Assembly (NCBI GenBank): GCA_016839815.1
Contig: JAEOTM010000160.1
Span: forward strand, 1 to 57,359
Reading direction: 5' to 3'
Length of the DNA stretch: 57,359 nucleotides
From: Candidatus Hodarchaeota archaeon
Lineage (GTDB): Archaea > Asgardarchaeota > Heimdallarchaeia > Hodarchaeales > Hodarchaeaceae
Shown: positions 2,620 through 47,071 of the stretch, one piece after another
How the letters are laid out: the number at the start of each line of letters is the position of its first letter
Position numbering within the stretch: the first letter of the stretch is position 1
Made by a program: the position numbers and the translations under genes
The notes under the pieces: model-generated
Database searches by the model: none
Seen by the model: the letters and a program-made list of their open reading frames with translations, nothing else
What the model was told of the DNA's origin: nothing

Positions 2620-2994
2620 CTAGGGTAAAGATAAATTGGCTCCACACTTTATACAAAATTTTCCTTGATAGGTATTCTGGGTACCACATTCGCCGCAAAA
2701 ACTTGCTACCTGTCCTGTGGAAGACCGGGGAACAAGTCGTGCACCAGCATAGAATTGCTGTTGGGTATGTCGTTTATTACGAAATGGTTCAATCACCCAG
2801 TAATATATAGGGCCACCAACCATGATAATAAAACCAATAAAGATCATAAACATCCAAATGGGATTAACTAAGGAAGGGTCATATTCCTGATAGCTATCCT
2901 GTTCACCAATAAAAGAGAGAGCTCCAAAAATGGAAGCAACCATCCAAAAACCAAAACCCAGAGCTCCTACACCAAGACCACGTAAGAAACGCAT
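2620..2994 (-). CDS. membrane protein with C-terminal zinc ribbon
   Basis: Two predicted TM helices followed by CGECG...CIKCGANL (CxxC...CxxC). Confidence 0.4.
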   Translation of the reverse strand: MRFLRGLGVGALGFGFWMVASIFGALSFIGEQDSYQEYDPSLVNPIWMFMIFIGFIIMVGGPIYYWVIEPFRNKRHTQQQFYAGARLVPRSSTGQVASFCGECGTQNTYQGKFCIKCGANLSLP

Positions 2995-3099
2995 TTCCTC
3001 ATCAATCTCAAGTACAGACTAACAGTTCTAAAGGATTATAAAAAGATTTGGAAAAAAGACGAGAAAAATGTTTTTGAGGAAAGAGCTCCCTGAAAGTAG

Positions 3100-3174
3100 A
3101 AAAAAAAGAAAGGAGATACTGATTAAACAGTAATCTCAATACTCAGTCTGCGTACCAGCTCTTTATAGCAATTC
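3100..3174. repeat. ~85-bp tfb-3'-end repeat, copy 1
   Basis: A-rich run + GAAAGGAGATACTG-N6-CAGTAATCTCAATACT...CTCTTTATAGCAATTC. Minus-strand frame encodes NCYKELVRRLSIEITV*. Lies 15 nt downstream of the vapC stop. Confidence 0.8.
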
Positions 3175-3194
3175 TACAGCATAAAAAAACATCT

Positions 3195-3608
3195 TCATCG
3201 ATATTGTTTTATCTGTAGGTCCTGAACTCTGTTGAAATGGTTAACATTAGCAGTTAAAACTGGAAGATCTTCAACAAGAGCGATAGAGGCAATTGCAGTA
3301 TCTGCAAATCCAATATCTAAGCCTTTATCCACTAAAAATGCTCGTAGTTCTCCATATAGTTTGGAATGCTCTAAAGCGAACGGAAAAACAGTCAGTGTCG
3401 AGATAAGTGTATCTAGTTTTGTGTACCGTTTTTCCTGCCATTTTCGACGATATCGACCGTAATAGAGTTCTGAAACACTAATTGATGTCGTAACAACATA
3501 AATGTCTTCTCTAAGAAGGTGAAAGGTTGCTTGTTTTGCGGATGGAGTACCAGCAAGATAGTCGGACAGATAATCTGTATCAGCAATTATGGGGTGGGTT
3601 AATTCCAT
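3195..3608 (-). CDS. vapC: PIN-domain ribonuclease toxin (VapC-like)
   Basis: N-terminal IADTDYL acidic motif, ~137 aa, start overlaps the upstream small antitoxin-like ORF by 10 nt. Confidence 0.6.
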   Translation of the reverse strand: MELTHPIIADTDYLSDYLAGTPSAKQATFHLLREDIYVVTTSISVSELYYGRYRRKWQEKRYTKLDTLISTLTVFPFALEHSKLYGELRAFLVDKGLDIGFADTAIASIALVEDLPVLTANVNHFNRVQDLQIKQYR

Positions 3609-3811
3609 GCCTGACGAGCTTCCTTCTTAAATTCCGTCAGTTCTTTTTCATCTAGCTCGCTCTGTAGACTGCCGAACATTTCGAGGTACTTTTCAATGTT
3701 TGGTTTGGTCGTGAGTCGAATAACCGTCTCACTATACGACTCACCCTCCTTTTTAGCCTTTTTAAGAAGGTTATATGCCTTAGAATTTAAACTAATCGTT
3801 TTATAGGTCAT
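3599..3811 (-). CDS. vapB: VapB-like antitoxin (small DNA-binding protein)
   Basis: 70-aa basic/acidic protein immediately upstream of and overlapping the PIN gene, the classic TA arrangement. Confidence 0.5.
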   Translation of the reverse strand: MTYKTISLNSKAYNLLKKAKKEGESYSETVIRLTTKPNIEKYLEMFGSLQSELDEKELTEFKKEARQAWN

Positions 3812-3873
3812 TTAGATCCTCATATATTATTTCATCTATGAGCTTTATATTTCTTTTTAAAATCTAAAGTACA

Positions 3874-4428
3874 TCAGGAATGGCTATCTTCTGCAAGAGT
3901 AACGATCTCATTTTCATTAATATTCCAAGAAAATCTCTCACATGCGTCCTCAAAAACGTTTTTTGTCACTAGAATATCTAAAATTCCAGGATTATTTCCA
4001 ATCTTCAGAATTATAGCATTTTTCTGATGAACCCAATCACGAAGAACTCTTACTCTCTCGGTTAGATCTTCTAGTTTTAGTATGATTTCATCCAGTGGTT
4101 TTCTAACATCAATCGTGTATTTAAACAAGATAGAAAATACGATAGGTCCACGATACAGAGGAGAAGGGGAATCTTGGATTAAATGATTTTTAATGAAAGT
4201 TTTAACAAATTGAGAATTATGTAGAGGAATGGGATTTATCCAAGAATATGAGCCATTTTCATTCATCCGTCGTTGTACAATCACTTCTTGTACAAAATTA
4301 TGGTCAATTATAGAAGGAATTCCATCAAACAATAACTTTGGATTTATAAATTCCTTATAACTAATTTTGACATATCTTTCTTCTACCCCAGAGATAAATT
4401 CAGATAGGTTTTCATCTTGATTTTTCAT
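3874..4428 (-). CDS. hypothetical protein
   Basis: 184-aa ORF with coding-like composition and no recognisable motif. Confidence 0.3.
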   Translation of the reverse strand: MKNQDENLSEFISGVEERYVKISYKEFINPKLLFDGIPSIIDHNFVQEVIVQRRMNENGSYSWINPIPLHNSQFVKTFIKNHLIQDSPSPLYRGPIVFSILFKYTIDVRKPLDEIILKLEDLTERVRVLRDWVHQKNAIILKIGNNPGILDILVTKNVFEDACERFSWNINENEIVTLAEDSHS

Positions 4429-4553
4429 TCCTTATCCTCCATGGATTGTATCATTAATTAAGTCCTAAATTTAGACAAAAAAGTCTAGTGAGGAACAAAT
4501 ATTTAAGGAGAATGACCGCAAAGAAGAATCAACGATTAAAAACAAACGAAATA

Positions 4554-4632
4554 TAAAAAAAAGAAAGGAGCTACTGGTTAGACAATAATCTCGATACTTA
4601 GCTTGCGGACACGCTCTTTGTAGCGATTTCAC
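4554..4632. repeat. ~85-bp tfb-3'-end repeat, copy 2
   Basis: Same architecture as the other copies. Minus frame encodes *NRYKERVRKLSIEIIV*. Hairpin TACTG-N6-CAATA carries one mismatch. Confidence 0.8.
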
Positions 4633-4698
4633 GCCATTATTTCTTAAAACCTAATCCTTTAATATCATCAAAAAGCCATAAGTAATGGAAGGTTACGT

Positions 4699-5190
4699 AT
4701 GAAAAGAGCTCTTGTACTATTAATTTTGATTTTTCCTGTTTTTTTAATCACAGCCAATCCAATGACGTCAATAAATGACACTTTCTTAATTAACCCAGAT
4801 GAATATGTCTTTTATGAAGTTTTGTTGGAAAAAAATGAAACTTATTGGATTAGTATTACAGGAAACAATACATGGATCCTTATAACTGTAAATAATACTA
4901 ATTTTCAATTATTTCAACAAAAAGAGTCGTTTTATTCCCTAGAAAATAATCATTACTCCTTTTTAAATGGTAAATTTTGGATTCCAACAGGAGGGTTTGC
5001 AAATTTGACTACATTTTATGAGGAGACCAACGAAGGTGAAGCAATCTTCATACTCTATAATAGTAATGAGGATATACTAGCTGGAGAAATAGAATGGAGA
5101 AAAAAAGGAGGAAGCTCAACGTATATAGATTTACTTTCACTAGGACTGGTTGTTCCTTGTTTAGCGCTTATTAGAAAGGTTAAGCGATAA
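4699..5190 (+). CDS. small secreted/anchored protein
   Basis: N-terminal signal peptide (LVLLILIFPVFLITA), many N-x-T/S sequons, C-terminal hydrophobic segment plus basic tail. Confidence 0.4.
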   Translation: MKRALVLLILIFPVFLITANPMTSINDTFLINPDEYVFYEVLLEKNETYWISITGNNTWILITVNNTNFQLFQQKESFYSLENNHYSFLNGKFWIPTGGFANLTTFYEETNEGEAIFILYNSNEDILAGEIEWRKKGGSSTYIDLLSLGLVVPCLALIRKVKR

Positions 5191-5248
5191 ATTCAGATTC
5201 TTACCCCAAAATTCGAATGAAAATCAATGAACTCATGATAAACTCCCC

Positions 5249-5332
5249 AAAAAAGAAAAAAAGAAAGGAGATACTGGTTACACAGTAATCTCAATACTAA
5301 GCTTGCGAACAAGCTCTTTATAGCGATTTCGC
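5249..5332. repeat. ~85-bp tfb-3'-end repeat, copy 3
   Basis: Minus frame encodes ...HAKRNRYKELVRKLSIEITV*, identical to the TFB C-terminus with only synonymous differences. Perfect hairpins AGCTTG-CGAA-CAAGCT and TACTG-GTTACA-CAGTA. Confidence 0.85.
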
Positions 5333-5616
5333 TTTGCATGGTAAAAAAAAATATCATTACTACCAGTCCAAATAATTTTTAATAGTAACTAATATAGTAT
5401 CACATTCTTGATATCAGCATTTAAGTCTTATATTGCCCTCATGGAAAGTTTTATTTTGGTGATTTTTGGATTACTACATTATTATCCAAAGGGGATCTTC
5501 TAAGAAGACGTGATACGTAATAAGATTGAAAAGAGTTTTTTTTATGTTTTTAACAAATCGATACATCATTATTCCTCGAGTTCTGCCTAAAAAAATAGAT
5601 AGGGAATGAAAGGAGT

Positions 5617-7554
5617 TTGAATAATTCAAAACTACTTGGCAGAATAATCGGAGTTCTCCTCCTAACAAGTTTCTGCACTGATTCGGTTGTATCCACCATT
5701 GAGGAGGGGAACACGGCAAGATGGGCATCTGAGTTTCGTCCTCAAGGAGCTTATCTGGATGAAATACTCTTTCTGATCTATACTTCAACCGAAGAAGAGG
5801 ATGCAATGTTAGCTCTCCAATCGGGTAACTTAGATGTGAACGATCGAGATATTAGAAGTGAATTCTTGGAAGATTTATTCCCAGCTCTTACACTCCAAAC
5901 TAGTCTCGCGAACAGGTATCTAGCACTCTCACTGAATACACATCGATTCCCACTTAACATTACTGAGTTTCGACGTGCAATGGCTTTTGGCCTGGATAAA
6001 AACCCATGTAACATCCCTCCTTACTGTAGTGAGGTCCCTCTAGACACCTACATTCCCCTAGCTTCTACCGAATGGAACGTTGAAAATAGTCTTACTACTC
6101 ATTTTTATGATCAGGATATTGTTTCAGGTAACACTTCTCTTGTAGCAGCTGATTTTATCGATCTTGATGGTGATGGCTGGCGAGAATATGACAAAGATGG
6201 AAGTGGTACATGGACAGCAGGTGACTTAGATGATACCCATCCGCTAATGACAATTGAGCTGTGGTCATCAACCCAAACCATGGGATTTGTTCCTCCTCTT
6301 CAAGCAGCAACAATGATGGCGGAAGGGCTGATAAAAATGGGAATACATTCGACAGTAACAGAACATAGTTTCGACTGGATTCTTGATCAAATGATTCAAG
6401 GAACACATTGTGTGACAGCCTGGACAGAAAGTGTTCCAATCATTAACCCAACAAAGGCACTTTATGAGAAATTTAGAACAGAGACATCTTCTAATAAAGC
6501 CTATTATAAGTTTAGTAATAGCACCATTGATGAAGTTCTTGATAGAATGGTTACCGCGAATACTTTGGAGGAAGTGAAAAACCTGGTAAGGAATATTTCG
6601 ATTATGCTCGCGTATGAGCAACCACAAATTGTGTATGTGAATGACATCTATGTCAATGCCTGGCGTAATGACAAATTCATGGGCTTCGAGGAATTTGTTG
6701 GACAAGGATACACAGGTGATAATCCCTACTCAGGCACCCAGATTCGAAAATTGGATGGAACAATGGGTGGTTCAATTAAATACCGTATATCAGAGGATTT
6801 AGAAACTCCCAATGTCATGATGGTAAATGAGAAAACCACCAAGATGGTCATGGAATACATTTACGAAGGTCTCTGGCAAACTGATCCAGTCACATGGGAT
6901 CCCATTCCTCAATTAGCGTATACATGGGAGATTGAGAATGGGATCAATGATCTACTTAACAATGTTGTTGACGGGGATAAATACACCTTCTACCTGTATG
7001 AAAACGAAACTTGGCATGATGGGACACCGTTCACTTCAGCAGATGTCAAATTCTCAATTGAGGAAATCTGGCCCAAAAGTAATCATTACCCAACGACAGC
7101 TAAAGATATCTATAGAGTTACAATCCCTGATGACTATACTGTGGAGATCTGGGTTAATGGTTCTAATTATTTTCAGTGGAGTGAAGTAACAGGCATTCCT
7201 TATATTGTTCCTAAGCATATCTGGAATAATGTGCTAGATGTATCAACCTTTTTGCCATCTGATTCTCAAATCATTGGAACTGGTCCATATAAGTGGGATG
7301 AATACATCCCAGGTGAATTTATCAGCCTTATTCGTCATGAAAATTGGCGTTGGGATATTCGTGAAGTATCTGTAACAAGCACAACTCATACCACTACCCC
7401 AGATGACTCCTCTCCTACTTCAACAACAACATCTGTGACAAATCGTATACCTGGGTTCGTTGATTTCGTTCTGATTTTAGGAATAATCGGACCTATCCTA
7501 ACCAGAAAGTCAAAAAAAGAAAAAAAAAATAAAGAGATACTGCTTACACAGTAA
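5617..7554 (+). CDS. secreted surface protein (solute-binding-protein-like) with S/T-rich stalk and C-terminal membrane anchor
   Basis: Signal peptide, 645 aa, TSTTHTTTPDDSSPTSTTTS linker, then a hydrophobic helix plus KSKKEKK tail. Weak resemblance to ABC substrate-binding family 5. Confidence 0.45.
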   Translation: MNNSKLLGRIIGVLLLTSFCTDSVVSTIEEGNTARWASEFRPQGAYLDEILFLIYTSTEEEDAMLALQSGNLDVNDRDIRSEFLEDLFPALTLQTSLANRYLALSLNTHRFPLNITEFRRAMAFGLDKNPCNIPPYCSEVPLDTYIPLASTEWNVENSLTTHFYDQDIVSGNTSLVAADFIDLDGDGWREYDKDGSGTWTAGDLDDTHPLMTIELWSSTQTMGFVPPLQAATMMAEGLIKMGIHSTVTEHSFDWILDQMIQGTHCVTAWTESVPIINPTKALYEKFRTETSSNKAYYKFSNSTIDEVLDRMVTANTLEEVKNLVRNISIMLAYEQPQIVYVNDIYVNAWRNDKFMGFEEFVGQGYTGDNPYSGTQIRKLDGTMGGSIKYRISEDLETPNVMMVNEKTTKMVMEYIYEGLWQTDPVTWDPIPQLAYTWEIENGINDLLNNVVDGDKYTFYLYENETWHDGTPFTSADVKFSIEEIWPKSNHYPTTAKDIYRVTIPDDYTVEIWVNGSNYFQWSEVTGIPYIVPKHIWNNVLDVSTFLPSDSQIIGTGPYKWDEYIPGEFISLIRHENWRWDIREVSVTSTTHTTTPDDSSPTSTTTSVTNRIPGFVDFVLILGIIGPILTRKSKKEKKNKEILLTQ

Positions 7555-7597
7555 TCTCGATACTGAGCTTGCGTACAAGCTCTTTATAGCGATTTCG
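7512..7597. repeat. ~85-bp tfb-3'-end repeat, copy 4 (native tfb 3' end)
   Basis: Overlaps the last 16 codons of tfb (minus strand) and the last codons of the 645-aa ORF (plus strand). Confidence 0.85.
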
Positions 7598-8512
7598 CAC
7601 AGTTACCTCCGTAACATGTGCAACTTCACTTATCTCTCGTTGTGTTCGTCGTTCTCCGTTGATTATCCCGCTGATATAGATTGCCGCGGCGGCTAGCCCT
7701 GTCGGGTCTTTTCCTGCTGTCAATCCTCCTGCTTTTGCGCGTTTGAGGATTTCTGCCGCTTTTCGTTGACACACTCCTGAGAGTCGTAATTCTGTTCCAA
7801 AGCGTACCAGGTAATCTATGGGACTTGCTAATGGGATATTTAGATACAGTTCACGTAGTAACAGTCGGTAACATCTACCTAACTCTTTTTTCGTAATTCG
7901 TGATTCTTTTGCGATTTCATCCAGTGTTCGTGGGACTCGTCGTACTCGTGCTGATGCGTAGATTGTTGCCGCTACCATCGCTTCGATTGAGCGTCCTCGT
8001 ACTAACCGTTTTTCTATTGCTTTTCGATAGATGATTGCTGAAGTTTCTTTCACATTTCGTGGAATGCCTAGCTGTGATGCTAATCGATCCATTTCTGACA
8101 TGGCGAATGCTAGATTTCGATCCATCGAGCTATGGACTCTTGTTCTAATCTGCCATTTTCGTAAACGGTAGATTTGTGCACGTCGTGATGCAGTTAGTTT
8201 ATTCCCAAATGTATCACGGTTTTCATAACCTATGATTGTTGATAATCCTTTATCGTGAACTGAAAATGTACTTGGTGAACCTACACGACTTCGTTTATCT
8301 CGTTCTTCGCTGTTGAATGCTCGCCATTCGGGTCCTTCGTCAATTAGTCGTGTTTCCAGTACGTAACCACATTTTTCACAGATTAGTTCGCCTCGATTTT
8401 CGTCGGCCACAATATCTGTTGATCCACAGTTTTTACATTCGAGGATTTCTTCCTCGTCTTCTACCTGGCCTTTTTTCTGTGGTTTTGCTTTTGCCTCTTT
8501 CATAAGTGCCAT
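7544..8512 (-). CDS. tfb: transcription initiation factor TFB (TFIIB homolog)
   Basis: N-terminal Zn ribbon (CKNCGS...CEKCG), B-reader/linker, two cyclin-fold repeats, conserved C-terminal ...VTEVTVRNRYKEL. Confidence 0.92.
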   Translation of the reverse strand: MALMKEAKAKPQKKGQVEDEEEILECKNCGSTDIVADENRGELICEKCGYVLETRLIDEGPEWRAFNSEERDKRSRVGSPSTFSVHDKGLSTIIGYENRDTFGNKLTASRRAQIYRLRKWQIRTRVHSSMDRNLAFAMSEMDRLASQLGIPRNVKETSAIIYRKAIEKRLVRGRSIEAMVAATIYASARVRRVPRTLDEIAKESRITKKELGRCYRLLLRELYLNIPLASPIDYLVRFGTELRLSGVCQRKAAEILKRAKAGGLTAGKDPTGLAAAAIYISGIINGERRTQREISEVAHVTEVTVRNRYKELVRKLSIEITV

Positions 8513-9121: not shown

Positions 9122-12100
9122 CTAATTATTTTTTCTTCTTCTTCCAATTACTCCTTTGATGCTAATTAAAGCAAAAGTAATAATTATGAACCCTGGGAAA
9201 TAACCACCTTTAGATGTAGTAGTAGTCTCATCATCTGTAGTGGTTTCTGGAATTGTTGTTGTGACAAATGTATCGATGATAAAGACAATTGTTGTATGAC
9301 CAGTATTCCCTGCTGTATCCACCGCAACGATTGTAATATTGTTTTCTCCTTCAGGAAGATTCGCAATAATACTCCCACTAGTAATCGCTGTACTATTTAC
9401 CACTCCATTAATATATACTGAAGTGGTCCCTTCTGAAACTGTATAGGTCAAAGTAACACTATCAACGCTATATGTTGTAGTTGTAGGATGAGATATTTCA
9501 ACTATTGGATTACTATCATCTGTGATAAATGTAAAAACCATTGTCTTTCCATTTCCCGCACTATCTATCGCTAGCAGATATAAAGTATGAACTCCTTCTC
9601 CAGAGGGTAAAGGTGTCTGATACGGGGGTTCTAATATTTGATATGTTCCTATATCCCAATAATATCGCAAAACATCCAGATGAATCTCTGTTACACTCAA
9701 GTCAATTAGAGTTCCGCTGTTGTGAATGGTGTTATTCATAGGGGTTTCCAGAGTGATGATTGGATCGATATCATCTGTGATGAAGCTATATGTTTCAGTT
9801 ACTAGGTGTCCTGCTGTATCATTCGCATATACATATAACCAATGTGTCCCCTCTCCTGACGGTAATGGCGTTTGATAGGGGGAATTCCATGTTTGATTTG
9901 GACTATTATCCCAATTGTACCAGACAGTATCTAGATATTCATCGGCTACAGCAATGTTCAGTACGATACCAGATGGATATATGGAGTTATTTTGGTGAGA
10001 AGCTAATGTTATTGTAGGGGCTATTTCATCGATAGTTAGTTTTGTGACAAAAACATCACTATCAAAAGCTCCACTATGTGTACTATTGAATGCCCGATAG
10101 GTAGGAAAATCTGGTGATTCGGTAAATCCGCTTATGTAACTGTTGTTATATGTATCTACAGTAATTGTTCTAGCCTCCTCATCTTCAGACCCGCCTAAAT
10201 AGGTACTAAATAATAAACCCGTACCTGTACTATTGAATTTGGCCATAAATGCATCTTTATTGTTAAGCCCTCCATTATTACTAGCATCATAGGCATTCAT
10301 AACAGGTAAATTGGATGATCTGGTAGTCCCTCCTACAAATGTATTATTGTACACATCTACACTGATATCCTCAGGGATGTCTGAAGCACTACCTCCAAAA
10401 AACGTACTAAACACAAATCCTGTACCAGTAGCATTTAATTTAGTTATAAAACCTTCAGCACCGTCAAAAATACTATCATATGCATTCACTACTGGATAAT
10501 CATCTGAAGTTGTTGTTCCACATATGTAGGTCTGATTATAGACATCAACTGCGAGAGCTGTTGGATTATCGTAATTATTACCTCCAAGATAGGTGCTAAA
10601 TATCAGCCCATCACCAGCTGCGTTCACTTTACTCACAAAGTAGTCTTTAGGTCCTGAAAGTGTGTCATTTATTGCATTTACCAGAGGAAAATTTGTAGAA
10701 CTGTAGGTGTCACCCGTGAGGTAAATATGGTTATAATCATCTATAGCCATATCCCTGATATAATCTTGCCCATCCCCTCCCAGATAGGAACTAAAAAGTA
10801 AGCCTGAACCTGTAGCATTAAGTTTGGCAACAAATGCCTCAGATCCCCCTGCAATAACATCATCAAATGCATTTACCTTGGGAAAATTTGCTGAATAAGT
10901 TGTCCCCCCAATATAGATATTAGAGGAACTATCTACGGAAATAATTATCGTATTCTCATTTGAGGAACCCCCAATGTAGGTGCTGAAAATAAGTTCATTC
11001 CCTGTACTATTGAGTTTTGTGATAAATCCATCTTCACCACCATTATGACTATTGTTTAATCCTTTATAGGTAGGAAAATTATTCGAATTAGTAGTTCCAG
11101 AAAGATAGATATTACTTTCTTCATCCACAACTAGTCCTCTTGCAGTTTCGTAACTCGTACCGCCTAAATATGTACTGAAAACTATTCCTGTACCTGTTGA
11201 GTTTAATTTCGTAATAAATGCATCACTAGATCCGTTCAGAGTATTATCATACTCATTGAAACTCGGAAAGTTTGTCGAAGATGTGCTTCCACAGATATAG
11301 GTGTTATTATCATTATCTATTGCTAAATTATAAGCAATTTCAAGATCATTCCCCCCTAAGAACGTACTATACGATAAGATAAGGGGATCGATAGTCACCG
11401 TTTGAGAAGAATCATAAGCTTCAAGATAAAAGCCATAACGACTTGTTTCTTGTACTAAAAATCGAGCTGGAATTTCTATTCCATCTGTTTGAAAAACACG
11501 AAGGGAACTATCCTGAATAAGGGGTTTATTCCTGTCACGAGACGTAAACACCATGTTATCATAGTCTAACTCAAGTTTGACTGTATTACTTGCTTCTAAA
11601 ATGATCTCATTTGGATCAGCTCCTGGATGTACTACAAATTCATATTTTAATCCATCCTCAGACATGTAGTATCTTAAATCTATTTTATCATACAGATCAT
11701 AATACCAAATCTCCTGATATGTAGGAACATTTACTAAGTGTAAATTTGGATAGAAGAAGTTAATATAATTCTTTTGTTCTTGTATTCCCTTTGGATTAAT
11801 TTTATTTGCATCTGGGAAAGTAATGGAAAAAGATTCTGAATTTGTGACAAAATCTATCTTTGAGCAACTAAATCCGATACTAATTCCGTTCATTGAGTAA
11901 TAATATCTAATTTCTTCATTATTTATTTGACCCTGGTTTTTAATAAAACCACTGAAGGGTACTTCGACTGGTTTGTTTCGTTTTTGCGCCTTAGGTGGAA
12001 AAAGAATTTCAAGAGGTTCACCCTTCGACAAAACTTGTGATAAAATCTCTTCACTATCAATTGAAGTTTTACTAATACCATGAAGTGAGATCACAAACAT

Positions 12101-12142
12101 GGAAATCAAAATAAACATTTGTATTTTCCTTTGGATAAACAT
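9122..12142 (-). CDS. large cell-surface protein with SBBP beta-propeller repeats, Ig-like domains and C-terminal TM anchor
   Basis: Signal peptide. More than eight repeats of the ...YxGGxxxDxxxxIxVDxxGNxYxxGxTxSxNFPxxNAxDxxxxG... pattern (SBBP/PF06739-like). T-rich stalk and hydrophobic C-terminus plus RRRKNN. Confidence 0.7.
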   Translation of the reverse strand: MFIQRKIQMFILISMFVISLHGISKTSIDSEEILSQVLSKGEPLEILFPPKAQKRNKPVEVPFSGFIKNQGQINNEEIRYYYSMNGISIGFSCSKIDFVTNSESFSITFPDANKINPKGIQEQKNYINFFYPNLHLVNVPTYQEIWYYDLYDKIDLRYYMSEDGLKYEFVVHPGADPNEIILEASNTVKLELDYDNMVFTSRDRNKPLIQDSSLRVFQTDGIEIPARFLVQETSRYGFYLEAYDSSQTVTIDPLILSYSTFLGGNDLEIAYNLAIDNDNNTYICGSTSSTNFPSFNEYDNTLNGSSDAFITKLNSTGTGIVFSTYLGGTSYETARGLVVDEESNIYLSGTTNSNNFPTYKGLNNSHNGGEDGFITKLNSTGNELIFSTYIGGSSNENTIIISVDSSSNIYIGGTTYSANFPKVNAFDDVIAGGSEAFVAKLNATGSGLLFSSYLGGDGQDYIRDMAIDDYNHIYLTGDTYSSTNFPLVNAINDTLSGPKDYFVSKVNAAGDGLIFSTYLGGNNYDNPTALAVDVYNQTYICGTTTSDDYPVVNAYDSIFDGAEGFITKLNATGTGFVFSTFFGGSASDIPEDISVDVYNNTFVGGTTRSSNLPVMNAYDASNNGGLNNKDAFMAKFNSTGTGLLFSTYLGGSEDEEARTITVDTYNNSYISGFTESPDFPTYRAFNSTHSGAFDSDVFVTKLTIDEIAPTITLASHQNNSIYPSGIVLNIAVADEYLDTVWYNWDNSPNQTWNSPYQTPLPSGEGTHWLYVYANDTAGHLVTETYSFITDDIDPIITLETPMNNTIHNSGTLIDLSVTEIHLDVLRYYWDIGTYQILEPPYQTPLPSGEGVHTLYLLAIDSAGNGKTMVFTFITDDSNPIVEISHPTTTTYSVDSVTLTYTVSEGTTSVYINGVVNSTAITSGSIIANLPEGENNITIVAVDTAGNTGHTTIVFIIDTFVTTTIPETTTDDETTTTSKGGYFPGFIIITFALISIKGVIGRRRKNN

Positions 12143-13782: not shown

Positions 13783-14385
13783 ATGCTCTCTGAAGATGAT
13801 CGAAAAAAGGCCTATGATGAAGGATTAATTGTTAAAGAATCCGCTTTGGATTTACTGGGCCATTTCTCAACTGCTGCTGCTATTTTAGCTGGTTTTTTCC
13901 TAACTGCAGCAATATTTTTGGTTTCAGTTAATGCGGAACGACTGGGAACTGGTCAGTATGCTTTTTTAGATGAACCAATTGGAGATCAGTTCGGTCTGGC
14001 GGATACTATACGTGAATGGTTACCTGAGTCAATTATTACCGATTACTGGCCCAATCATTATTCTTATATGTTGATAATATTTATTATCTTATTTCTTCTT
14101 GCAATGTTCTCCTATGCCTGTTATATCCAAGCAGGTTTGTCCCACATGAAGGTTCTTGAAGGAAAAAGGAGTTCTCTTGACAGTGTTTGGTTTTGGCAAA
14201 AGTGGGGTCTTCGAATATTAATAATTGGTTTATTAGCAGCGTTTATTAGTCTTCCTTGGGCCATTCTTCGTTTTGCATTTGAACATGCTTTCTCTTGGAC
14301 AATCGTTCTGATCTCCATCGTTCTCCTCTGTGGTTTACTCCTTGGTCTTGGTATTAAACTTGTAAAGTTTCGTCGGTTAAAGTAA
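13783..14385 (+). CDS. membrane protein, unknown function
   Basis: Four hydrophobic helices, 200 aa. Confidence 0.35.
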   Translation: MLSEDDRKKAYDEGLIVKESALDLLGHFSTAAAILAGFFLTAAIFLVSVNAERLGTGQYAFLDEPIGDQFGLADTIREWLPESIITDYWPNHYSYMLIIFIILFLLAMFSYACYIQAGLSHMKVLEGKRSSLDSVWFWQKWGLRILIIGLLAAFISLPWAILRFAFEHAFSWTIVLISIVLLCGLLLGLGIKLVKFRRLK

Positions 14386-14412
14386 ACAGTCAGGCCAATA
14401 AACGTCTTTCCT

Positions 14413-15717
14413 TTGATAGATCTAGAGATTATAATAATGGTAATGAAAATTCGTCACCAATTGTTAGTTTTCATGTCAATTTCTCATTTTATACATCATG
14501 TGTTGTTATATGCCTTCCCCGCTTTATTAATTCTTATTGTCAATGACATTCCTCTTTCTTATCTTGAAATGGGTCTATTAGGCTCTCTTCCATCCTTGAT
14601 TATGGCCTTTACCTCTCCACTTATTGGTTATTGGGGAAAAAATGCCCGTTATGGATTTCTGATTGTCCTTGGGGGGATTATTCTTTTTGTTATGTCTTGT
14701 TTTTGTTTCTCAATTACTTCTGACTTCTTGGGATTATTTATTGGAAATCTAATTCTGGGTTTTGGTTGTACGACGTATCATCCTGTAGGATTAGGTGTGG
14801 CTGCAAATTCTTTCTCCGAACACAATCGTGGAAAAGCCATGGCAATTAATCATGCAGCTGGGGTAATCGGAACTGCAGTAAGCCCTTTTAGCACACTATC
14901 CTTGGCATTGTTTGTTTTTACTTGGAGGTGGACTTTCTTCATACTGGGTCTGGTGTGTGTTTTTCTTGTGAGTTTTCTAAGTATATGGCTTCTTTTCCAA
15001 AATTTGATAAGTCGTTTTGAATCATTAGTAGTAATAGCTAGAGAAAAACAGAAACCTATTAGCGAGGTATCGGAAAATTCCTCGATACTGCATTCACCTC
15101 ATCGAAACTGGATTTTAACAAGTTTAGCCATTATTATCTTGATTAGTGCACTACGAGGGGGAGTTTATCGGTCTATTAGCTATTTTACAGCAACTTTACT
15201 CAAAAATTTCTATGATCTTGATGCTTTCATGGCGGGTGCAACGACTAGTTTTATTCTCCTATTAGGATCTTTGTCTGATATCTATGGTGCTATCAATTCT
15301 GATAGACTAGGTCCACGTGGTAGAATTAGAATTGTCCTAATTTCCGCATTAATCTCAAGTTTGGCCATTGTTACTCTTATTGCGATTACTCTTGGTTTTC
15401 CAGAAATTATATTTGTTATTTTTGGATTTTCTGTCTTCGCTGTAGGTTTTTATCTTGCAGGAGGGACATTACAAGCATTGCAGGTTGATCTTGTCCCAGC
15501 TAGTGATAGAACTTTTTTCTACTCACTTGTTTTCTCTCTGGGCTTAATAGTCAGCTCTGTTTCCCCCACTATCTTCGGTGTGTTACTAGATATGTTTAAT
15601 TCCCCAGTTGGTGGATTATTCTTCATGCTAGCCTTAATGATGGCGTCTTTTGTTATTACAGAGTTTTTTCGACGTCGAATTCCCTTTGCTGAAAAAGAAA
15701 ATTTATTTTCTCATTAA
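14413..15717 (+). CDS. MFS-type transporter
   Basis: Polytopic (10-12 TM) protein with MFS-like loop motifs. Confidence 0.6.
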   Translation: MIDLEIIIMVMKIRHQLLVFMSISHFIHHVLLYAFPALLILIVNDIPLSYLEMGLLGSLPSLIMAFTSPLIGYWGKNARYGFLIVLGGIILFVMSCFCFSITSDFLGLFIGNLILGFGCTTYHPVGLGVAANSFSEHNRGKAMAINHAAGVIGTAVSPFSTLSLALFVFTWRWTFFILGLVCVFLVSFLSIWLLFQNLISRFESLVVIAREKQKPISEVSENSSILHSPHRNWILTSLAIIILISALRGGVYRSISYFTATLLKNFYDLDAFMAGATTSFILLLGSLSDIYGAINSDRLGPRGRIRIVLISALISSLAIVTLIAITLGFPEIIFVIFGFSVFAVGFYLAGGTLQALQVDLVPASDRTFFYSLVFSLGLIVSSVSPTIFGVLLDMFNSPVGGLFFMLALMMASFVITEFFRRRIPFAEKENLFSH

Positions 15718-15718
15718 A

Positions 15719-16489
15719 TTAGATGTAATAACTGGGGCCACGAGAACTATCTTCATCTGAACCACTTTCTGCTTCTTCTGCTTGGTGAAGTAGATCGTTC
15801 TTCTGAATGGCCTCCTTGATAATCCCATCCAGGTCTTCATACTTGTAATCTAGAGAGAATAGTTTAGCCAAGCGTTTTAGAAGAGCTTTACTCGCCAACG
15901 GATCAGTACCAACTAAGGTTAATTTTCCGAGTAATCCAAAACTACGTAATCCTTTTTCAGCTGCTAAAGCGGAAAAAACACCTACTGCTCCCGTTATTTC
16001 CCCACCTTTCAACGGAGTAATATCATAATCTTCGAGCCATTTCATGGTGGCTTCATTATATCCGAAGGCAGCAACTTCTGGACCTTCTTCTAAAGCTCTG
16101 AGACCGCCCAAACACACAACAGTTTTAGCGTTCATTTCGATAACAAAATCAAGAACTTCGTTTAGAACCTGAATAATTCCAATATCATGAGGTTGTGCAT
16201 CGCCTGTTAAGATCAAAAGGTTGGGAGTTGTTTTTGTGATAGCATAAATTTCCATTCGTGCTAATTGACCAACCCCTTGCTCATTATCTATTTGAACTAC
16301 AGGAGGAAAAAAAGAACTATAAATTCGTGCGATTTCAATGCCTTCGAACTGATCAATTAAGAAGTTTGCAGCAATCTTCCCAATTAGTCCCATACCGGGT
16401 AATCCTTGAATTACGACTGTATCAGGGGTTAAATCTACTTCAGCGAGCTTATGGAAGTAGCTGAACGAATTTCCATTTGATTGACTCAA
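15719..16489 (-). CDS. PAC2-family proteasome assembly chaperone-like protein
   Basis: QGLPGMGLIGKIA matches the PAC2 G-x-P-G-x-G-x-[VI]-G motif. About 250 aa, acidic C-terminus ending YYI (HbYX-like). Confidence 0.5.
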   Translation of the reverse strand: MSQSNGNSFSYFHKLAEVDLTPDTVVIQGLPGMGLIGKIAANFLIDQFEGIEIARIYSSFFPPVVQIDNEQGVGQLARMEIYAITKTTPNLLILTGDAQPHDIGIIQVLNEVLDFVIEMNAKTVVCLGGLRALEEGPEVAAFGYNEATMKWLEDYDITPLKGGEITGAVGVFSALAAEKGLRSFGLLGKLTLVGTDPLASKALLKRLAKLFSLDYKYEDLDGIIKEAIQKNDLLHQAEEAESGSDEDSSRGPSYYI

Positions 16490-16621
16490 GTTGGTACCTC
16501 AGTTACTTGTTTGTTCTTTGTATTTTATTGACTAGGTTGCGGAAAAACTATCGTTATATCCTTAGATATTGTGAGGATTTTGACAAAACATTTTATTATT
16601 AAAAAATGAGGATTAATGACT

Positions 16622-17599
16622 TCAATAATCTAGTGGAGGACCATCACGAATACCCTGAGGAGTTATATGATAAACTGCTTCCCTTTCTGCCAACTCGGGA
16701 GAATCAAATATACGTGCGATACGTGCAGTGCCTCTTGATTTCCGTAGCAATATTCTATGTGTTGGTCGATGGCCCCATGCAAATCCCAGTGCAGGTTCCA
16801 AATTATTTGCCCCCGAGAATAAATTATCAGGATTGCTGAGAATTTGATTGGTCGTTATCACTGCTAATTTGTAGGTTTCTGCGAGTCGCTGAAGTGTCTC
16901 GGCATGGGCCATTAACGTCTGCTGACGACGAGGGAGATTTTCTTTACCTGGAAATTCAGCACGAAAATGTGAGGCCATGGAATCTATAACTATCAATCGG
17001 ATATTATTTTCTTCAATAACTTTATCGGCCTTTTTCATAAGCTGGATCTGGTGGTCTGAGTTATACGCCCGGCTTACGAAGATATTATTCAGATAACTCT
17101 TTGGGTCACTTGTATAAGAGTACGCCATTTCAGCTACTCGGGCAGGAGCAAATGTATTTTCAGTATCGAGAAATAGGGCCTTTCCTTCTAACCCACCTTC
17201 TTCGACAGATCTTTGAACATTTAAACACAATTGAAAGGATATTTGGGTCTTTCCTGTAGCAAACGCCCCACTAAACTCTGTTATGGATCCTACAGCAATA
17301 CCTCCTCCTAATATGTCGTCTAGTGACTGGGAAGAAGTTGTAATTCTTGGTTTTTCCAGCTCTTGCTTTAATAATGAGGCTGCTGTGGTTGGTTGATCCA
17401 TTCCTAATAATTTTCGCGCCTGATTAACTGCTCGTTCCGCTGAAGATTTACTTACTTCACAGCGTGACATTACTTCGCTAGGAGGAGTCGCAGCTAGTGC
17501 CATCAGACTGGGAAACTCTTCCTGAAGACGGCTTCGTAGCTCTTTTGCTACATTCAGCTGAGTGAAATCGTTTGTATTACTCATCATTAATCCTTTCAC
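16622..17599 (-). CDS. radA: DNA repair and recombination protein RadA (Rad51/RecA homolog)
   Basis: N-terminal HhH, Walker A GAFATGKTQ, Walker B LIVIDS, C-terminal GFAWGHRPTHRILLRK. Confidence 0.9.
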   Translation of the reverse strand: MKGLMMSNTNDFTQLNVAKELRSRLQEEFPSLMALAATPPSEVMSRCEVSKSSAERAVNQARKLLGMDQPTTAASLLKQELEKPRITTSSQSLDDILGGGIAVGSITEFSGAFATGKTQISFQLCLNVQRSVEEGGLEGKALFLDTENTFAPARVAEMAYSYTSDPKSYLNNIFVSRAYNSDHQIQLMKKADKVIEENNIRLIVIDSMASHFRAEFPGKENLPRRQQTLMAHAETLQRLAETYKLAVITTNQILSNPDNLFSGANNLEPALGFAWGHRPTHRILLRKSRGTARIARIFDSPELAEREAVYHITPQGIRDGPPLDY

Positions 17600-42172: not shown

Positions 42173-43348
42173 CTATCCATTTAGTTCCAGTAGTTTCTGA
42201 GATTTTAACGCCATCAGGTATTCTTCATTAGTTGGTATTACTAGAACTTGAACTTGAGAATTATTGGCTGAAATTGTTGTTTCTTCTTCCCCAATTGCTT
42301 CTTTATTACTAGAAGAGTCTAGAATTACGCCTAAACTTCCTAATCCATCCATGATTAATTCTCGGAAATACGGGGATCTTTCACCTATTCCACCCGTAAA
42401 TATAATTACATCTAATCCTCCCAATACAACAGAGTAGGCTCCTATATATTTCTGAATCCGATAAACAGCCATTTGGATAGCTAACTGCTCTTTTGAGTGT
42501 CCGCTCTGAGCACGGCTCTGGATATCACGCATATCTCTAAATCGGCCTGTAATTCCTAAGAAACCACTTTGAGAATTCAGTTCATAATCAATTTGATCTA
42601 TTGACAAGTTTTCAGATCGCATCATGGCAAGCATTATTCCTGGGTCAAGATCCCCAGAGCGAGTACCCATTATCAGTCCTTCAAGAGGAGTTAATCCCAT
42701 ACTTGTATCGACAGATTTTCCATCGTAGATAGCTGTTACTGATGCTCCATTACCGAGATGTAAAACGATAATTCTCTTACAATTTTCTGATTCCAATTTA
42801 TCTATAGCTCTATTGGTTACATATTCAACAGATGTACCATGAAAACCATATCTTCGATAAGAGTATTTTTCATACCATTTTCTTGAGATCGCATACTGAA
42901 AGGCATATTCTGGAATAGTATTATGAAATGAGGTGTCAAAAACAGCAATATGAGGAATTTTTGGGAGTTTCTTCTTACTAGCACGAATTCCCATGAGATT
43001 TGCAGGATTATGAAGCGGAGCAAGCTCAGAAAGATTTTTTATTTGGTTTTCAATCTCATTATCAATGACCACTTCTTTCCGGAACTCTTCACCACCATGT
43101 ACAACTCTATGGGCTACCGCGGCAATATCCTCTAAATTGAAAAATTTTAAAACATAATCAAGAGCATCTTCATGGTTCTTACAGCTTATTTCCTTTTTAA
43201 GCTCTTTATCTTCACCATTATGGACAATTTGAGAATTGGATAAACCAATCCTTTCTACTAATCCTTTAGCTAATAGCTGTTCAGATTCCATATTGTAAAT
43301 CGAATATTTGAGAGAAGATGAACCAGAATTTATGGTTAGGATAATCAA
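42173..43348 (-). CDS. ackA: acetate kinase
   Basis: MIILTINSGSSSLKY N-terminal ASKHA motif, VHGG, HLGNG, IFTGGIGE signature motifs. 391 aa. Confidence 0.9.
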   Translation of the reverse strand: MIILTINSGSSSLKYSIYNMESEQLLAKGLVERIGLSNSQIVHNGEDKELKKEISCKNHEDALDYVLKFFNLEDIAAVAHRVVHGGEEFRKEVVIDNEIENQIKNLSELAPLHNPANLMGIRASKKKLPKIPHIAVFDTSFHNTIPEYAFQYAISRKWYEKYSYRRYGFHGTSVEYVTNRAIDKLESENCKRIIVLHLGNGASVTAIYDGKSVDTSMGLTPLEGLIMGTRSGDLDPGIMLAMMRSENLSIDQIDYELNSQSGFLGITGRFRDMRDIQSRAQSGHSKEQLAIQMAVYRIQKYIGAYSVVLGGLDVIIFTGGIGERSPYFRELIMDGLGSLGVILDSSSNKEAIGEEETTISANNSQVQVLVIPTNEEYLMALKSQKLLELNG

Positions 43349-43358
43349 CCAAAACCCT

Positions 43359-44807
43359 CTAATAAGTACCTGACTTCGAATCGGTTCCTTTTACGATAGC
43401 TATTGAGGCAGAAGCTCCAATTCTAGTTGCACCCGCGTTGATCATTTGTTCTGCAATTTCATGAGTTCTAATTCCACCTGCAGCCTTTACTCCCATTTCT
43501 GGACCTACTGTTTTGCGCATGAGTGCGATATCCTCAACTAATGCTCCTGCGGTGCTAAAACCAGTGGAAGTTTTCACAAAATCTGCACCACTTAATTTTG
43601 TTAAAAGGCTACCTTTCACAATTTGCTCCTTGGTTAGTAGAGCAGTTTCAAGAATAACTTTAACAATAGCTTTTCCAGCCGCAGCATTTACAACAGCTTG
43701 GATATCTTCCCTAACTAGATCGTCATTTCCTGATTTTAAAGCACCAACGTTAATCACCATATCTACTTCTTCTGCACCATTTGCTATAGCATCACGTGTC
43801 TCAATGGCTTTTACTGTTGGAGTTGTGGCTCCTAAAGGAAAACCAATTACGGTACACACTTTTACAGAACTACCTTTCAGATATTTTGCTGCTTTTGAGA
43901 CGTTTGTTGGATTAATACACACTGTGGCAAATTTATACGTAGCTGCTTCTTCACAAAGCTGTTTAATCTCTTCATCCGTCGCATCTGCACGTAAATTCGT
44001 GTGATCGATGTATTGAGCCAACCCCATATCATAACCGTTAATTCCCGTTTCAGAGGTTATCCTTGTGGCTCCTCCATTAACTAATGCTTTGACTGCAACT
44101 TGAGATTTTCCATCTAAGCCAATATCTTTTCCTGCAGTCCCAACTGTGTAGGTACGACTAGAGGGGGATGGAATATAAGAAGAAGGATCCTGATCGGTAA
44201 GATTTTGTACCTCTACAATTTTTATTCCCATAGATCTTAATTGATCTACAATCCCTTCAATTCTTCTATTCATAGCTGGTGGCACTTGATCTTTTTCAAT
44301 TTGACAACAATATATTGAATCATAAGCAGCAATCACAGGTTTTCCATACATCAATCCGAAAACAAGTGTAATTGTACCAAGAGTATCTGCATTTAACGCA
44401 GCCACCTTAGCTGCTGTATTTAAAGAAAGAATAGGCACATAGATAACATCAATTTTTCCTAAGATGTTTTCAAAATACTCTTCGGAATAATCTGTGATAA
44501 TCATAGCTCCTTCAGAGACTTTTCTAATATCAGGCATTCCGATGATTTTGATAGCTGCACGAGTCATAACGATGTACGTATTTGTATAGGATTTAGTTAT
44601 TAGTTCTATTTGATGCATTACTTCATTGATTTCTTTATTTCCACCGCATAGGAGAATCAAAGCAGAGGTTCCTGAGGAAATACTGTAATTTACTTTCTTA
44701 TTAGAAGTCTGTAACCTTGGGTTTGACTGTGTTGGAGGAGTAAGTGAATCCTGATCAAGCTTTCTCATAACCTCCTCTGTAATTTTTTGTATCATTTCAT
44801 TACTCAT
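43359..44807 (-). CDS. deoC: deoxyribose-phosphate aldolase (DeoC) with N-terminal encapsulation-peptide-like helix and ~200-aa extra domain
   Basis: C-terminal ~230 aa align with DeoC, including Schiff-base Lys in FVKTSTGF. N-terminal [17 protein letters not shown] amphipathic helix plus linker. Middle alpha/beta domain unassigned. Confidence 0.8.
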
Positions 44808-44826
44808 TTAGTATACCTTCTTGACC

Positions 44827-45117
44827 TTAACTTAATTCTATTTGTTTTCCGTTGACTTCGACGTAGTCCACGACACCTATTATTAATGCATCAACCGCTG
44901 CTTTATCATTTTGCATTATCCCTCGTATAGAGTTACCTTCGCGAATCACAAGAACACAATCTCCAATTCCGGCTTTTGCTGTATCCAACGCGATAATTGA
45001 TGGATCAGTAAACTCTCCTTTCAAATCTATCGGACGTACTACTAGTATCTTTCCATTTTCATGACTTTCCGTCTTGATTGGAGCTACTACATTCCCAATA
45101 ACTTTAGCAAGAATCAT
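44827..45117 (-). CDS. BMC vertex protein (BMC-P, EutN/PduN/CcmL family)
   Basis: 96 aa, MILAKVIGNVVAPIK...GIGDCVLVIREG...IIGVVDYVEV is the EutN fold. Confidence 0.85.
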   Translation of the reverse strand: MILAKVIGNVVAPIKTESHENGKILVVRPIDLKGEFTDPSIIALDTAKAGIGDCVLVIREGNSIRGIMQNDKAAVDALIIGVVDYVEVNGKQIELS

Positions 45118-45656: not shown

Positions 45657-45660
45657 ATAA

Positions 45661-46119: not shown

Positions 46120-46144
46120 TTGAATTCAACATGTTAAATAGACT

Positions 46145-47045: not shown

Positions 47046-47071
47046 TTTTTATTTCACCAATTTTTCTTGTT

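Follow-up and report, generated by a model that had tools for sequence, protein, structure and literature searches.

Copies of the tfb 3' end delimit a putative, strain-variable gene-capture array in a Hodarchaeales archaeon

The stretch of DNA analyzed here (the window; 57,359 nt, contig JAEOTM010000160.1 of assembly GCA_016839815.1, Candidatus Hodarchaeota archaeon) carries tfb, the gene encoding transcription initiation factor B (TFB, TFIIB), followed by small gene cassettes that are separated by copies of the tfb 3' end. A preliminary description of the window had proposed that these copies arose by serial site-specific integration at the tfb 3' end or that they form an integron-like cassette array. 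Here, the array was compared with the tfb loci of related genomes. All comparisons rest on metagenome-assembled genomes (MAGs) or metagenome contigs, and the approximately nine copies found apart from a functional tfb gene represent few independent events.

Four direct copies of the tfb end

A repeat search over the window returned one family of direct repeats with four members of 93 nt (copies 1 to 4, at 3085-3177, 4540-4632, 5240-5332, and 7506-7598), within which the previously noted copies are located. Identity to copy 3 ranges from 76 to 86%. Each copy of about 90 nt comprises the final 17 codons of tfb with the stop codon, together with a bulged 10-bp hairpin and an oligo-T run. As described before, the homology among the copies starts at the RNR codons, 51 nt upstream of the stop codon (-51), and ends approximately 35 to 45 nt beyond it, in the T-run.

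Copy 4 (7506-7598, minus strand) was correctly recognized as the real tfb 3' end. The minus-strand open reading frame (ORF) at 7544-8512 encodes a 322-aa TFB with Pfam matches to TFIIB (E = 4.1e-43) and Zn_Ribbon_TF (6.7e-20). The last 17 codons of this gene occupy 7547-7597, the TAA stop codon occupies 7544-7546, and the hairpin spans 7534-7558; the copy includes the oligo-T run and 38 nt of 3' flank. The other three copies, which also lie on the minus strand, are termed orphans. Copy 3 (5240-5332, hairpin at 5268-5292) has retained an intact coding part, RNRYKELVRKLSIEITV followed by the stop codon, which is translated in the tfb frame as KRNRYKELVRKLSIEITV. All three codons in which it differs from copy 4 are synonymous, as claimed earlier. 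Copy 2 (4540-4632) is a decaying orphan with TGA at the first codon and the replacements L to R and T to I; its hairpin (4568-4592) contains one G.U pair and one mismatch. Copy 1 (3085-3177) is the most decayed orphan, with TAG at the first codon and the replacements R to C and K to R, and has kept its hairpin (3113-3137). It is probably the oldest orphan of the array. The peptides read from copy 1 (YKELVRRLSIEITV) and copy 2 (YKERVRKLSIEIIV) match those reported previously, in the same frame; however, both copies carry an in-frame stop at the first codon (stop-NCYKELVRRLSIEITV in copy 1 and stop-NRYKERVRKLSIEIIV in copy 2, each closed by a stop codon) and two to three amino acid changes.

The element was found only at tfb loci. 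A search for an 18-mer core motif with up to three mismatches gave four matches, all of them the copies, against 0.08 expected and none elsewhere in the 57 kb. With a 16-mer core motif and the same tolerance, eight matches were obtained (1.33 expected), four of which lie inside the copies. A pattern scan of 185,579 species genomes returned only three matches, all at tfb loci. The search for further copies, which the preliminary description had recommended, was thus negative for the rest of the window and led to tfb alone in other genomes, and its statement that the element is not a simple terminator repeat holds. A generic terminator or a dispersed repeat resembling repetitive extragenic palindromes was rejected on the same grounds.

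Cassettes of the array

The copies enclose three mutually unrelated cassettes, whose contents, as judged from the ORF list and Pfam, are those described before. The first, between copies 1 and 2, contains a vapBC toxin-antitoxin pair on the minus strand (vapB, 3599-3811, Pfam VAPB_antitox [PF02697], 1.5e-13; vapC, 3195-3608, PIN domain [PF01850], 1.5e-8). vapB precedes the PIN-domain gene with a 10-nt overlap, the arrangement of VapBC type II systems, and the operon ends 18 nt before copy 1. The same cassette contains a 184-aa ORF without an assigned function (3874-4428, minus strand) and without a Pfam or PADLOC match.

The second cassette encodes a 163-aa protein (4699-5190, plus strand) with a signal peptide and a C-terminal transmembrane segment, which forms a singleton cluster without a family match. 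The G+C content of this cassette is about 31%, compared with a background of about 37%. The third cassette, nearest to tfb and probably the youngest, encodes a 645-aa surface protein (5617-7554, plus strand) that resembles SBP_bac_5 (Pfam, 8.6e-35) and has a PGF-type C-terminal anchor. This protein belongs to a multiparalog Asgard family; its best matches are 49% identical, and it has no close relative. The cassette genes are oriented in both directions, vapBC and the 184-aa gene on the minus strand and the other two on the plus strand.

The convergent genes for the 645-aa protein and TFB share 11 nt at their ends (7544-7554). The Lys-rich tail of the 645-aa protein, KSKKEKKNKEILLTQ followed by a stop codon, is encoded antisense to the tfb oligo-T terminator and hairpin (7506-7554), so the repeat supplies the ends of two genes at once.

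Two further genes border the array on its outer side. Next to copy 1 lies a gene for a 124-aa membrane protein with a C-terminal zinc ribbon (2620-2994, minus strand; weak Pfam matches to DZR and Zn_Ribbon_1), and farther out lies a metallo-beta-lactamase (MBL) gene (648-1616).

Empty and occupied sites in related genomes

Relatives without the cassettes, with which a comparison had been suggested, were found in two cases, and both gave clean empty sites. In Heimdallarchaeota B3_Heim (NJBF01000010.1; L001, also recorded as L004), tfb is followed by 214 bp and an MBL gene, the counterpart of the MBL gene in the window. Homology between the two sequences ends at window position 7514, the end of the T-run, and the window holds about 5.9 kb in place of the 214 bp. 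Neither vapBC nor the 645-aa gene is present in L001. The corresponding occupied site is found in DXJL01000056.1 (L002), in which the order is MBL, orphan copy, vapBC, and tfb. L002 equals L001 plus an 884-nt vapBC insert, with a 93-nt segment of L001 (10943-11035) present twice and both flanks 92% identical; beyond the orphan (L002 copy 1) lie an intergenic region and an MBL gene that are the same as those found after tfb in L001. The vapBC pair of L002 is orthologous to that of the window (75% nucleotide and 74 to 77% amino acid identity), and its copy 1 is orthologous to window copy 1, with the same spacing from the vapC stop codon and 75% identity.

The second pair is L100 and L106. In L100, a small Zn-ribbon gene directly follows tfb, without an orphan. 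The single orphan of L106 and the 1.5 kb after it are 89.9% identical to the tfb end of L100 and its downstream region, which includes the Zn-ribbon gene and a gene for a BNR protein; the L106 cassette encodes a 233-aa CBM96 protein. The Zn-ribbon gene after window copy 1 shows 69.5% nucleotide identity to L106 11652-12038 and is probably a former direct downstream neighbor of tfb. Homology between the window Zn-ribbon protein and the protein after the L006 orphan could not be demonstrated. Downstream of window copy 3, the sequence GGGGAG...TCATGAG resembles that which follows the intact tfb gene in L001 and L106.

Arrays of one to three orphans with unrelated cassettes were detected in six contigs. 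JAEOTQ010000168.1 (L098, also recorded as L003) has tfb and two orphans, with a 5.9-kb cassette (genes for 171-aa, 713-aa, KaiC-like, and DinG-like helicase proteins) and a 1-kb cassette. L099 has one orphan and a cassette with a 218-aa gene, and L006 has one degenerate orphan 7.2 kb downstream. L098, L099, and L100 encode the same TFB protein and differ in downstream content next to near-identical upstream flanks (97.8% identity for L098/L099, 99.9% for L099/L100). Orphans were not found in L095, L096, and L108 (10 kb downstream covered), in L102, L103, L086, and L088, or at any of the more distant TFB loci.

The 184-aa protein belongs to a family whose genes are the co-oriented immediate downstream neighbors of intact tfb genes in L098, L095, L096, L097, and L089-L094. 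BLASTP showed 49% amino acid identity to the member in L098 (L003 590-1120) and 26 to 28% to those in L095 (199 aa) and L097 (201 aa). Every orphan is followed by a gene that directly adjoins tfb in some other genome, which is most simply read as stepwise insertion, each time between tfb and the end that it had at that stage, with the newest cassette next to tfb. These results bear out the proposal of serial insertion at the tfb 3' end with regeneration of the gene end at each event, with empty sites in L001 and L100 and occupied sites in L002, L098, L099, L106, and L006. The direct repeats duplicate the 3' end of the target gene, tfb has remained intact, and relatives retain an empty site, as is typical of att duplications. 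The copies are very probably scars of serial insertions, and, as judged from these comparisons, the tfb 3' end is a strain-variable insertion hot-spot.

Several observations concern the relatives themselves. In L098, the KaiC-like ATPase (weak mad8 match) adjoins the DinG-type helicase (PADLOC typeIV_DinG, 1.9e-33) at 14146-16793; this pair is a possible defense module carried as cargo of the tfb array. Members of the 184-aa family (L098 11148-11663, L095 5462-6061, L097 5768-6373, and L089 11159-11554) have lengths of 130 to 200 aa and no Pfam or PADLOC match, and across Hodarchaeales the gene is usually followed by a convergent gene for a 500- to 740-aa protein without an assigned function. 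The family may be functionally linked to TFB. A search of a large database with the 184-aa protein, carried out to trace cassette mobility, returned only the query itself. Several assemblies are broken 0.1 to 2.5 kb downstream of tfb (L085, L005, L010, L089-L094, and L100, where the contigs end), which may reflect strain heterogeneity or repeated tfb ends.

Stop-codon hairpin and limits of the repeats

In each copy, a bulged 10-bp hairpin extends over the stop codon (GAGAU-UACUG...CAGUA-UCUC) and is followed by CUUUCUUUUUUU. The predicted stability ranges from -5.9 to -14.3 kcal/mol. Across 13 copies of six contigs, pairing holds for 93.8% of cells, and at two positions the changes are compensatory; for the main one of these, the four window copies represent only a single event. 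Double changes that restore or shift pairing were also found in the orphans L099 copy 2 and L098 copy 3. The preliminary description had two hairpins keeping their pairing. This applies to the stop-codon hairpin, whereas the AGCTTG/CAAGCT hairpin, inspected by eye, is disrupted in copy 1 and contains a mismatch in copy 2. A simple terminator scan passes over the stop-codon hairpin, which has fewer than three G-C pairs. Searching Rfam gave no family match for the repeat; only a sub-threshold match to CyaR was obtained and was taken as chance.

The orphans might be kept for a function, either as terminators of the cassette genes or as sources of RNAs with the same sequence as the tfb 3' end, or antisense to it, by which TFB expression would be tuned. 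In favor of such a role, hairpin and U-tract are retained in all orphans, two of them with the pairing-restoring double changes, the predicted hairpins are stable to the degree given above, the vapBC operon ends just before copy 1, and the 645-aa gene converges on tfb with an overlap. However, the coding part, useless in termination, is conserved as well as the hairpin, older orphans have accumulated stops and random changes (distributed 4/5/9 over the codon positions), L001 and L100 have no orphans, and there is no Rfam match. A role of this kind would also leave the origin of the copies unexplained, and we consider it improbable as the reason for the array.

The 5' limits of the orphans cluster. 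Homology starts at -51 +/- 3 in window copies 1 to 3 and L098 copy 2, at about -60 in L099 copy 2, at about -62 to -66 in the L106 orphan and L006 copy 2, and at about -70 in L098 copy 3. In L002 copy 1, homology is detectable from -27, and a boundary at -51 is likely to have preceded decay of the 5' part. The 3' limits range from +35 to +66.

Decay of the orphans and origin of the codon phasing

Compared with the resident tfb end, the number of nonsynonymous codons in the window is zero in copy 3 and three each in copies 2 and 1, and copy 1 is the most divergent orphan (15 of 78 positions differing from copy 4, against 13 of 78 for copy 2). The same trend was seen in L098, with no nonsynonymous codon in copy 2, nearest to tfb, and two in copy 3. 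Judging from these counts, the orphans decay with distance from tfb, which constitutes an age gradient.

The copies had been reported to diverge in phase with the codons. Among the four window copies, this phasing is marginal: within the YKEL...TV part, 7 of the 10 columns that vary are third positions (p = 0.02), as are 8 of 14 over the 17 codons (p = 0.058). Changes specific to orphans, which all four functional tfb ends in the comparison lack, are distributed 4/5/9 over the three codon positions (p = 0.31) and are not phased; therefore, the orphans are not under coding selection. Coding selection on orphans was rejected on this distribution and on the stops in the older orphans.

The phasing itself is real. 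In four young orphans (window copy 3, L098 copy 2, the L106 orphan, and L002 copy 1), comparison with the resident ends revealed 11 synonymous and no nonsynonymous codons. Random changes in a tfb-end sequence are silent in only 23.5% of cases, and a ratio of 11:0 corresponds to p of about 1e-7 under neutrality. Outside the coding part, the young orphans differ at 4 to 6 of 24 positions of the 3' untranslated region (UTR) in the three full-length pairs and at 1 position in L002 copy 1. Silent drift of the resident tfb gene alone was rejected as the source of the phasing: orphans would have decayed equally, yet none of the 11 changed codons is nonsynonymous. The 11:0 ratio indicates that the two members of a pair are distinct functional tfb alleles, which became different along separate lineages and were joined only recently. 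The cause of the codon-phased divergence is the joining of such alleles by recombination, and the insertions therefore brought DNA from related lineages.

These data also bear on a purely local origin, by tandem duplication or as remnants of a decayed tfb paralog, without horizontal input. The copies within one genome do share lineage-specific states: ACT/TAA/CAG occurs in all four window copies, compared with ACC/TAG/CGG in all six copies of L001, L002, and L003. However, the cassettes are mutually unrelated, each orphan is joined to a different former tfb neighbor, and the purely synonymous differences of young orphans, accompanied by equal UTR divergence, are impossible for in situ decay. 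We regard a local origin as highly improbable. The shared states also speak for homologous recombination.

Mosaic divergence within tfb

The TFB protein of the window and PWI48718.1 of Heimdallarchaeota B3_Heim are 100% identical (322/322 aa) despite a DNA identity of only 86%. The protein is likewise 100% identical over the 300 C-terminal residues compared in the window, L001, L002, L098 to L100, and L106, in which the tfb DNA is only 80 to 90% identical and the flanks are 74 to 85% identical. Archaeal TFB in this group thus appears to be under unusually extreme purifying selection.

Near-identical strains are mosaic at this gene. L099 and L100 differ by five mismatches in 8 kb upstream; mismatches begin at the tfb promoter region, and within tfb the sequences are 100% identical at the 5' end but only 86% identical toward the 3' end, with every difference silent and the mismatches spaced by three. 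L098 and L099 differ by a divergent patch within tfb. Both are identical over the last 105 nt of the gene and diverge right after the stop codon, within the spacer of the dyad formed by the hairpin. The mosaics indicate recombination tracts that terminate inside the gene, and they point to homologous recombination. Differing content beside near-identical flanks and mosaic divergence in a flanking core gene are both features of flexible genomic islands.

Two side observations concern tfb in other contigs. In L085, a 31-nt tandem duplication inside tfb truncates the called gene. L110 to L113 are four contigs that encode one identical 323-aa TFB (P0127), differ in upstream and/or downstream genes, and have no detectable orphans. 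This suggests that variability of the tfb flanks reaches a second Hodarchaeales lineage.

Search for a recombinase, a free element, and integron features

Pfam scans covered 10 ORFs around the array, 30 further ORFs of the window, and 24 ORFs in L002, L003, and L006, and 10 cassette proteins were analyzed with PADLOC. No integrase or recombinase domain was found in the tested cassette ORFs of four contigs (window, L002, L003/L098, and L006). The cassette genes of L099 and L106 gave no recombinase in precomputed Pfam lists or PADLOC, the methods applied to them. None of the 40 scanned window ORFs encodes a recombinase; they represent core chromosome, including ESCRT, ubiquitin system, GTPase, and microcompartment genes. 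Precomputed Pfam annotations within 10 kb of tfb in the relatives contain no recombinase either. The nearby integrase that the preliminary description had suggested looking for is thus absent from all these sets. Viral contigs of IMG/VR, searched with two IUPAC patterns, one coding pattern, and a TFB query, contain no element with the site, and a pattern scan of metagenome contigs gave no match with a pattern that was probably too strict.

The array resembles an integron platform, in which the repeats would play the part of attC-type sites and a dedicated integrase would use the tfb end as attI, in that its cassettes are small, often carry a single gene, and are each bounded by a structured repeat of about 90 nt; integrons are also reported from Asgard archaea (PMC9668308). 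The specific features of integrons were not found. No intI lies at the array or among the scanned window ORFs, the neighbors of the array being tfb, the gene for a 1006-aa SBBP protein, and major facilitator superfamily (MFS) transporter genes. As read from the sequence, a GTTRRRY-like string of the kind found in attC cores occurs only in copy 2, by chance. Cassettes have both orientations, and the sites are homologs of a gene end, conserved in sequence, rather than structure-only attC sites. The integron-like array proposed before is not upheld, and we consider this origin extremely unlikely.

Proposed mechanism and its weaknesses

We propose that the locus could be an additive recombination hot-spot anchored on the tfb 3' end, with 7506-7598 as the working gene end and terminator and the other three copies as former ends. 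Each addition of foreign DNA from a related lineage would carry its own tfb end, and the previous end of the recipient, from about codon R306, would be displaced outward together with everything downstream. In the window, the presumed order starts from tfb with the Zn-ribbon gene, to which the 184-aa gene with vapBC, then the 163-aa gene, and finally the 645-aa gene would have been added. Orphans would afterward decay or be patched by gene conversion, and recombination between copies could delete cassettes. A candidate for such patching is L002 copy 1, where a sharply bounded segment (-27 to +66), near-identical to the tfb end of L002 itself, lies inside an older orphan; we read it as probable gene conversion.

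Two routes are conceivable, neither of which would require an integrase encoded at the locus. In the first, one crossover would fall in the tfb body and a second would join a donor orphan to the tfb end of the recipient. Once one orphan exists, such a double crossover would give a naive genome both cassette and duplication, and the limits of the repeats would be inherited. In the second, circles with one copy of about 90 nt, formed by recombination between copies, would be inserted and excised by single crossover. The first orphan of each boundary type would stem from a rare illegitimate join, and only short repeats would survive. Of the engines considered, we favor host homologous recombination with the extremely conserved tfb sequence as landing pad, a reading on which our confidence and our doubt are evenly balanced.

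Several points weigh against this mechanism. The 5' limits cluster tightly (-51 +/- 3, and four others from -60 to -70), and free joins, whether homologous or illegitimate, would scatter more, except where inheritance fixes the boundaries or purging removes long repeats. An identity of 85 to 90% over about 90 nt makes a poor substrate for homologous recombination, which on its own also leaves the origin of the first orphan unexplained. The dyad, with its spacer of 4 to 6 nt, resembles the core site of a tyrosine recombinase, and the integrase search covered contigs rather than complete genomes. An integrase encoded at an unlinked site, or XerA, might act in trans; we regard this as less likely than not.

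Such a tyrosine recombinase, encoded on an unlinked element, on a plasmid, or by the host (XerA), would recognize, as attB, the dyad located at the stop codon and terminator of tfb. The cassettes would be circles with a tfb-end-like attP, either passengers mobilizable in cis or decayed elements, and the copies would be attL/attR duplications. The recurrent sharp 5' limit fits this explanation, with -51 in five orphans of three genomes when the boundary estimated for L002 copy 1 is included. So do the preservation of the imperfect 10-bp dyad, with compensatory changes even in orphans, and the divergence of L098 and L099 exactly in the dyad spacer. Insertions at the 3' ends of protein genes with re-used sites (PMC6563490) and stacked elements in Prochlorococcus (10.1101/2020.12.28.424599) are precedents. 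The dyad (10 pairs, one bulge, and a 4- to 6-nt loop) was compared with the general dif design, which consists of 11-nt arms and a 6-nt spacer (PMC8371274); like Xer/dif modules, the cassettes carry no recombinase of their own.

However, none of the nine cassettes or their flanks contains an integrase or a fragment of one, the limits differ between events (5', -27 to -70; 3', +35 to +66), and the cassette genes are ordinary chromosomal tfb neighbors in other genomes. Moreover, recombination tracts end within tfb well upstream of the repeat, and no element bearing attP was found among the viral contigs. Site-specific integration, as put forward in the preliminary description, is therefore unsupported as the mechanism, no integrase having been found and the mosaic tfb genes pointing to homologous recombination; we retain the unlinked recombinase as a tentative, less favored explanation and the main rival.

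More generally, in Hodarchaeales-like archaea the last approximately 90 nt of tfb, a gene with 100% protein identity at 80 to 87% DNA identity, might serve with the terminator hairpin as a universal homology "socket" for integrase-free islets, or an unlinked recombinase might act on the terminator dyad; this generalization is speculative and, in our view, unlikely. If the socket reading were true, integron-like gene capture would be run by homologous recombination, and cassettes would be captured, stacked, excised, and passed between species.

Comparison with known systems

SCC (staphylococcal cassette chromosome) composite islands at the rlmH/orfX 3' end of staphylococci and the cis-mobilizable elements (CIMEs) adjacent to integrative and conjugative elements (ICEs) of streptococci are bacterial systems with 15- to 30-bp repeats and Ccr or Int recombinases that often lie in the array. 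Similar to the tfb locus, they grow by tandem accretion at the 3' end of a housekeeping gene, the repeat recreates the gene end, and many units lack a recombinase. In Alteromonas and other bacteria, flexible islands are reportedly exchanged by homologous recombination in the conserved flanking genes, by replacement or addition. They share with the array a strain-specific surface cargo beside a core gene and the mosaic divergence of the flanks between near-identical strains. Pure replacement in flexible islands is not known to leave duplicated gene ends; at tfb, in contrast, each event leaves an orphan end, and the island grows additively.

In Prochlorococcus islands, partial tRNA gene copies separate stacked elements, and newer elements push older ones inward (10.1101/2020.12.28.424599). 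These tycheposons resemble the tfb array in the re-use of a gene end for landing, the displacement of older inserts, the partial target copies between modules, the niche, surface, or defense cargo, and the strain-variable content. They differ in that the target is a tRNA gene and integrases or their fragments are present, whereas the array uses the protein gene tfb, has repeats of about 90 nt, and has no integrase in nine cassettes.

Among 68 thaumarchaeal integrated elements, 14 are inserted into the 3'-distal part of a protein gene, and repeated use of one site to build arrays is known (PMC6563490). Archaeal integrated elements of this type likewise occupy the 3' end of a protein gene, regenerate frame and stop codon, and have empty sites in relatives. 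They have att sites with a median of 17 bp, are proviruses, casposons, or ICE-like elements with integrases, and do not include tfb among their reported targets, whereas the cassettes described here comprise 0.7 to 7 kb of ordinary genes. Integrons, including archaeal ones (PMC9668308), have in common with the array the small cassettes and structured repeats resembling recombination sites; the array differs by the absence of intI and attC cores, the mixed orientation, and the homology of its repeats to a gene end. To date, the mobile elements described from Asgard archaea encode integrases and use tRNA genes or short AT-rich motifs as their insertion sites (PMC8813620, PMC11529989). TFIIB is not mentioned as a target in either of these two studies, and a text search of the literature gave no tfb-linked arrays. 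Taken together, the locus fails the integron test, is without the integrase of classical integrative elements, and matches islands exchanged by homologous recombination, except that it is additive and leaves scars.

The comparative genomics of MAG contigs thus suggests a recurrent, strain-variable gene-capture site, with a mechanism that is a proposal, in the archaeal group closest to eukaryotes and beside an ESCRT/ubiquitin cluster. Its cargo comprises surface proteins, a toxin-antitoxin pair, and, in relatives, DinG-like helicase modules. An essential protein gene, rather than a tRNA gene, can anchor such an array. Arrays of att-like scars without a nearby integrase would be missed by island finders that rely on integrases, which bears on gene acquisition in Asgard archaea.

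Wider locus

On the other side of tfb, between tfb and the MFS gene, lies the gene for the 1006-aa protein (9122-12142), a secreted beta-propeller with six SBBP repeats, DUF7948, Ig-like domains, and a PGF-type C-terminal anchor. The same spot is empty in B3_Heim and encodes a 501-aa Kelch protein in L098; in L099 and L100, even the MFS genes are missing. In view of these differences, the upstream side of tfb is variable, too. Between the Zn-ribbon and MBL genes, a 227-aa ORF (1812-2495) has weak similarity to RNase III (E = 1e-3) and a double-stranded RNA-binding motif (E = 7e-5); neither L001 nor L002 has the gene at the syntenic position. Proteins of the RNase III/dsRBD type are rare in archaea.

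The cassette array adjoins a dense block of genes with eukaryotic signatures (16600-37700), which encodes RadA, PAC2, Vps4, two Snf7 proteins, ESCRT-II/EAP30, Vps28, a UEV-like E2, a ThiF-type E1, another E2, Ras/Arf/Rag-type GTPases, and Yip1. Farther along the window, a microcompartment-like locus (42173-53112) encodes an EutN/CcmL shell protein, an aldehyde dehydrogenase, an RnfC/Nuo51-like Fe-S protein, an acetate kinase, a DeoC-type aldolase, and a 618-aa fusion of citrate synthase and phosphate propanoyltransferase (PTAC).

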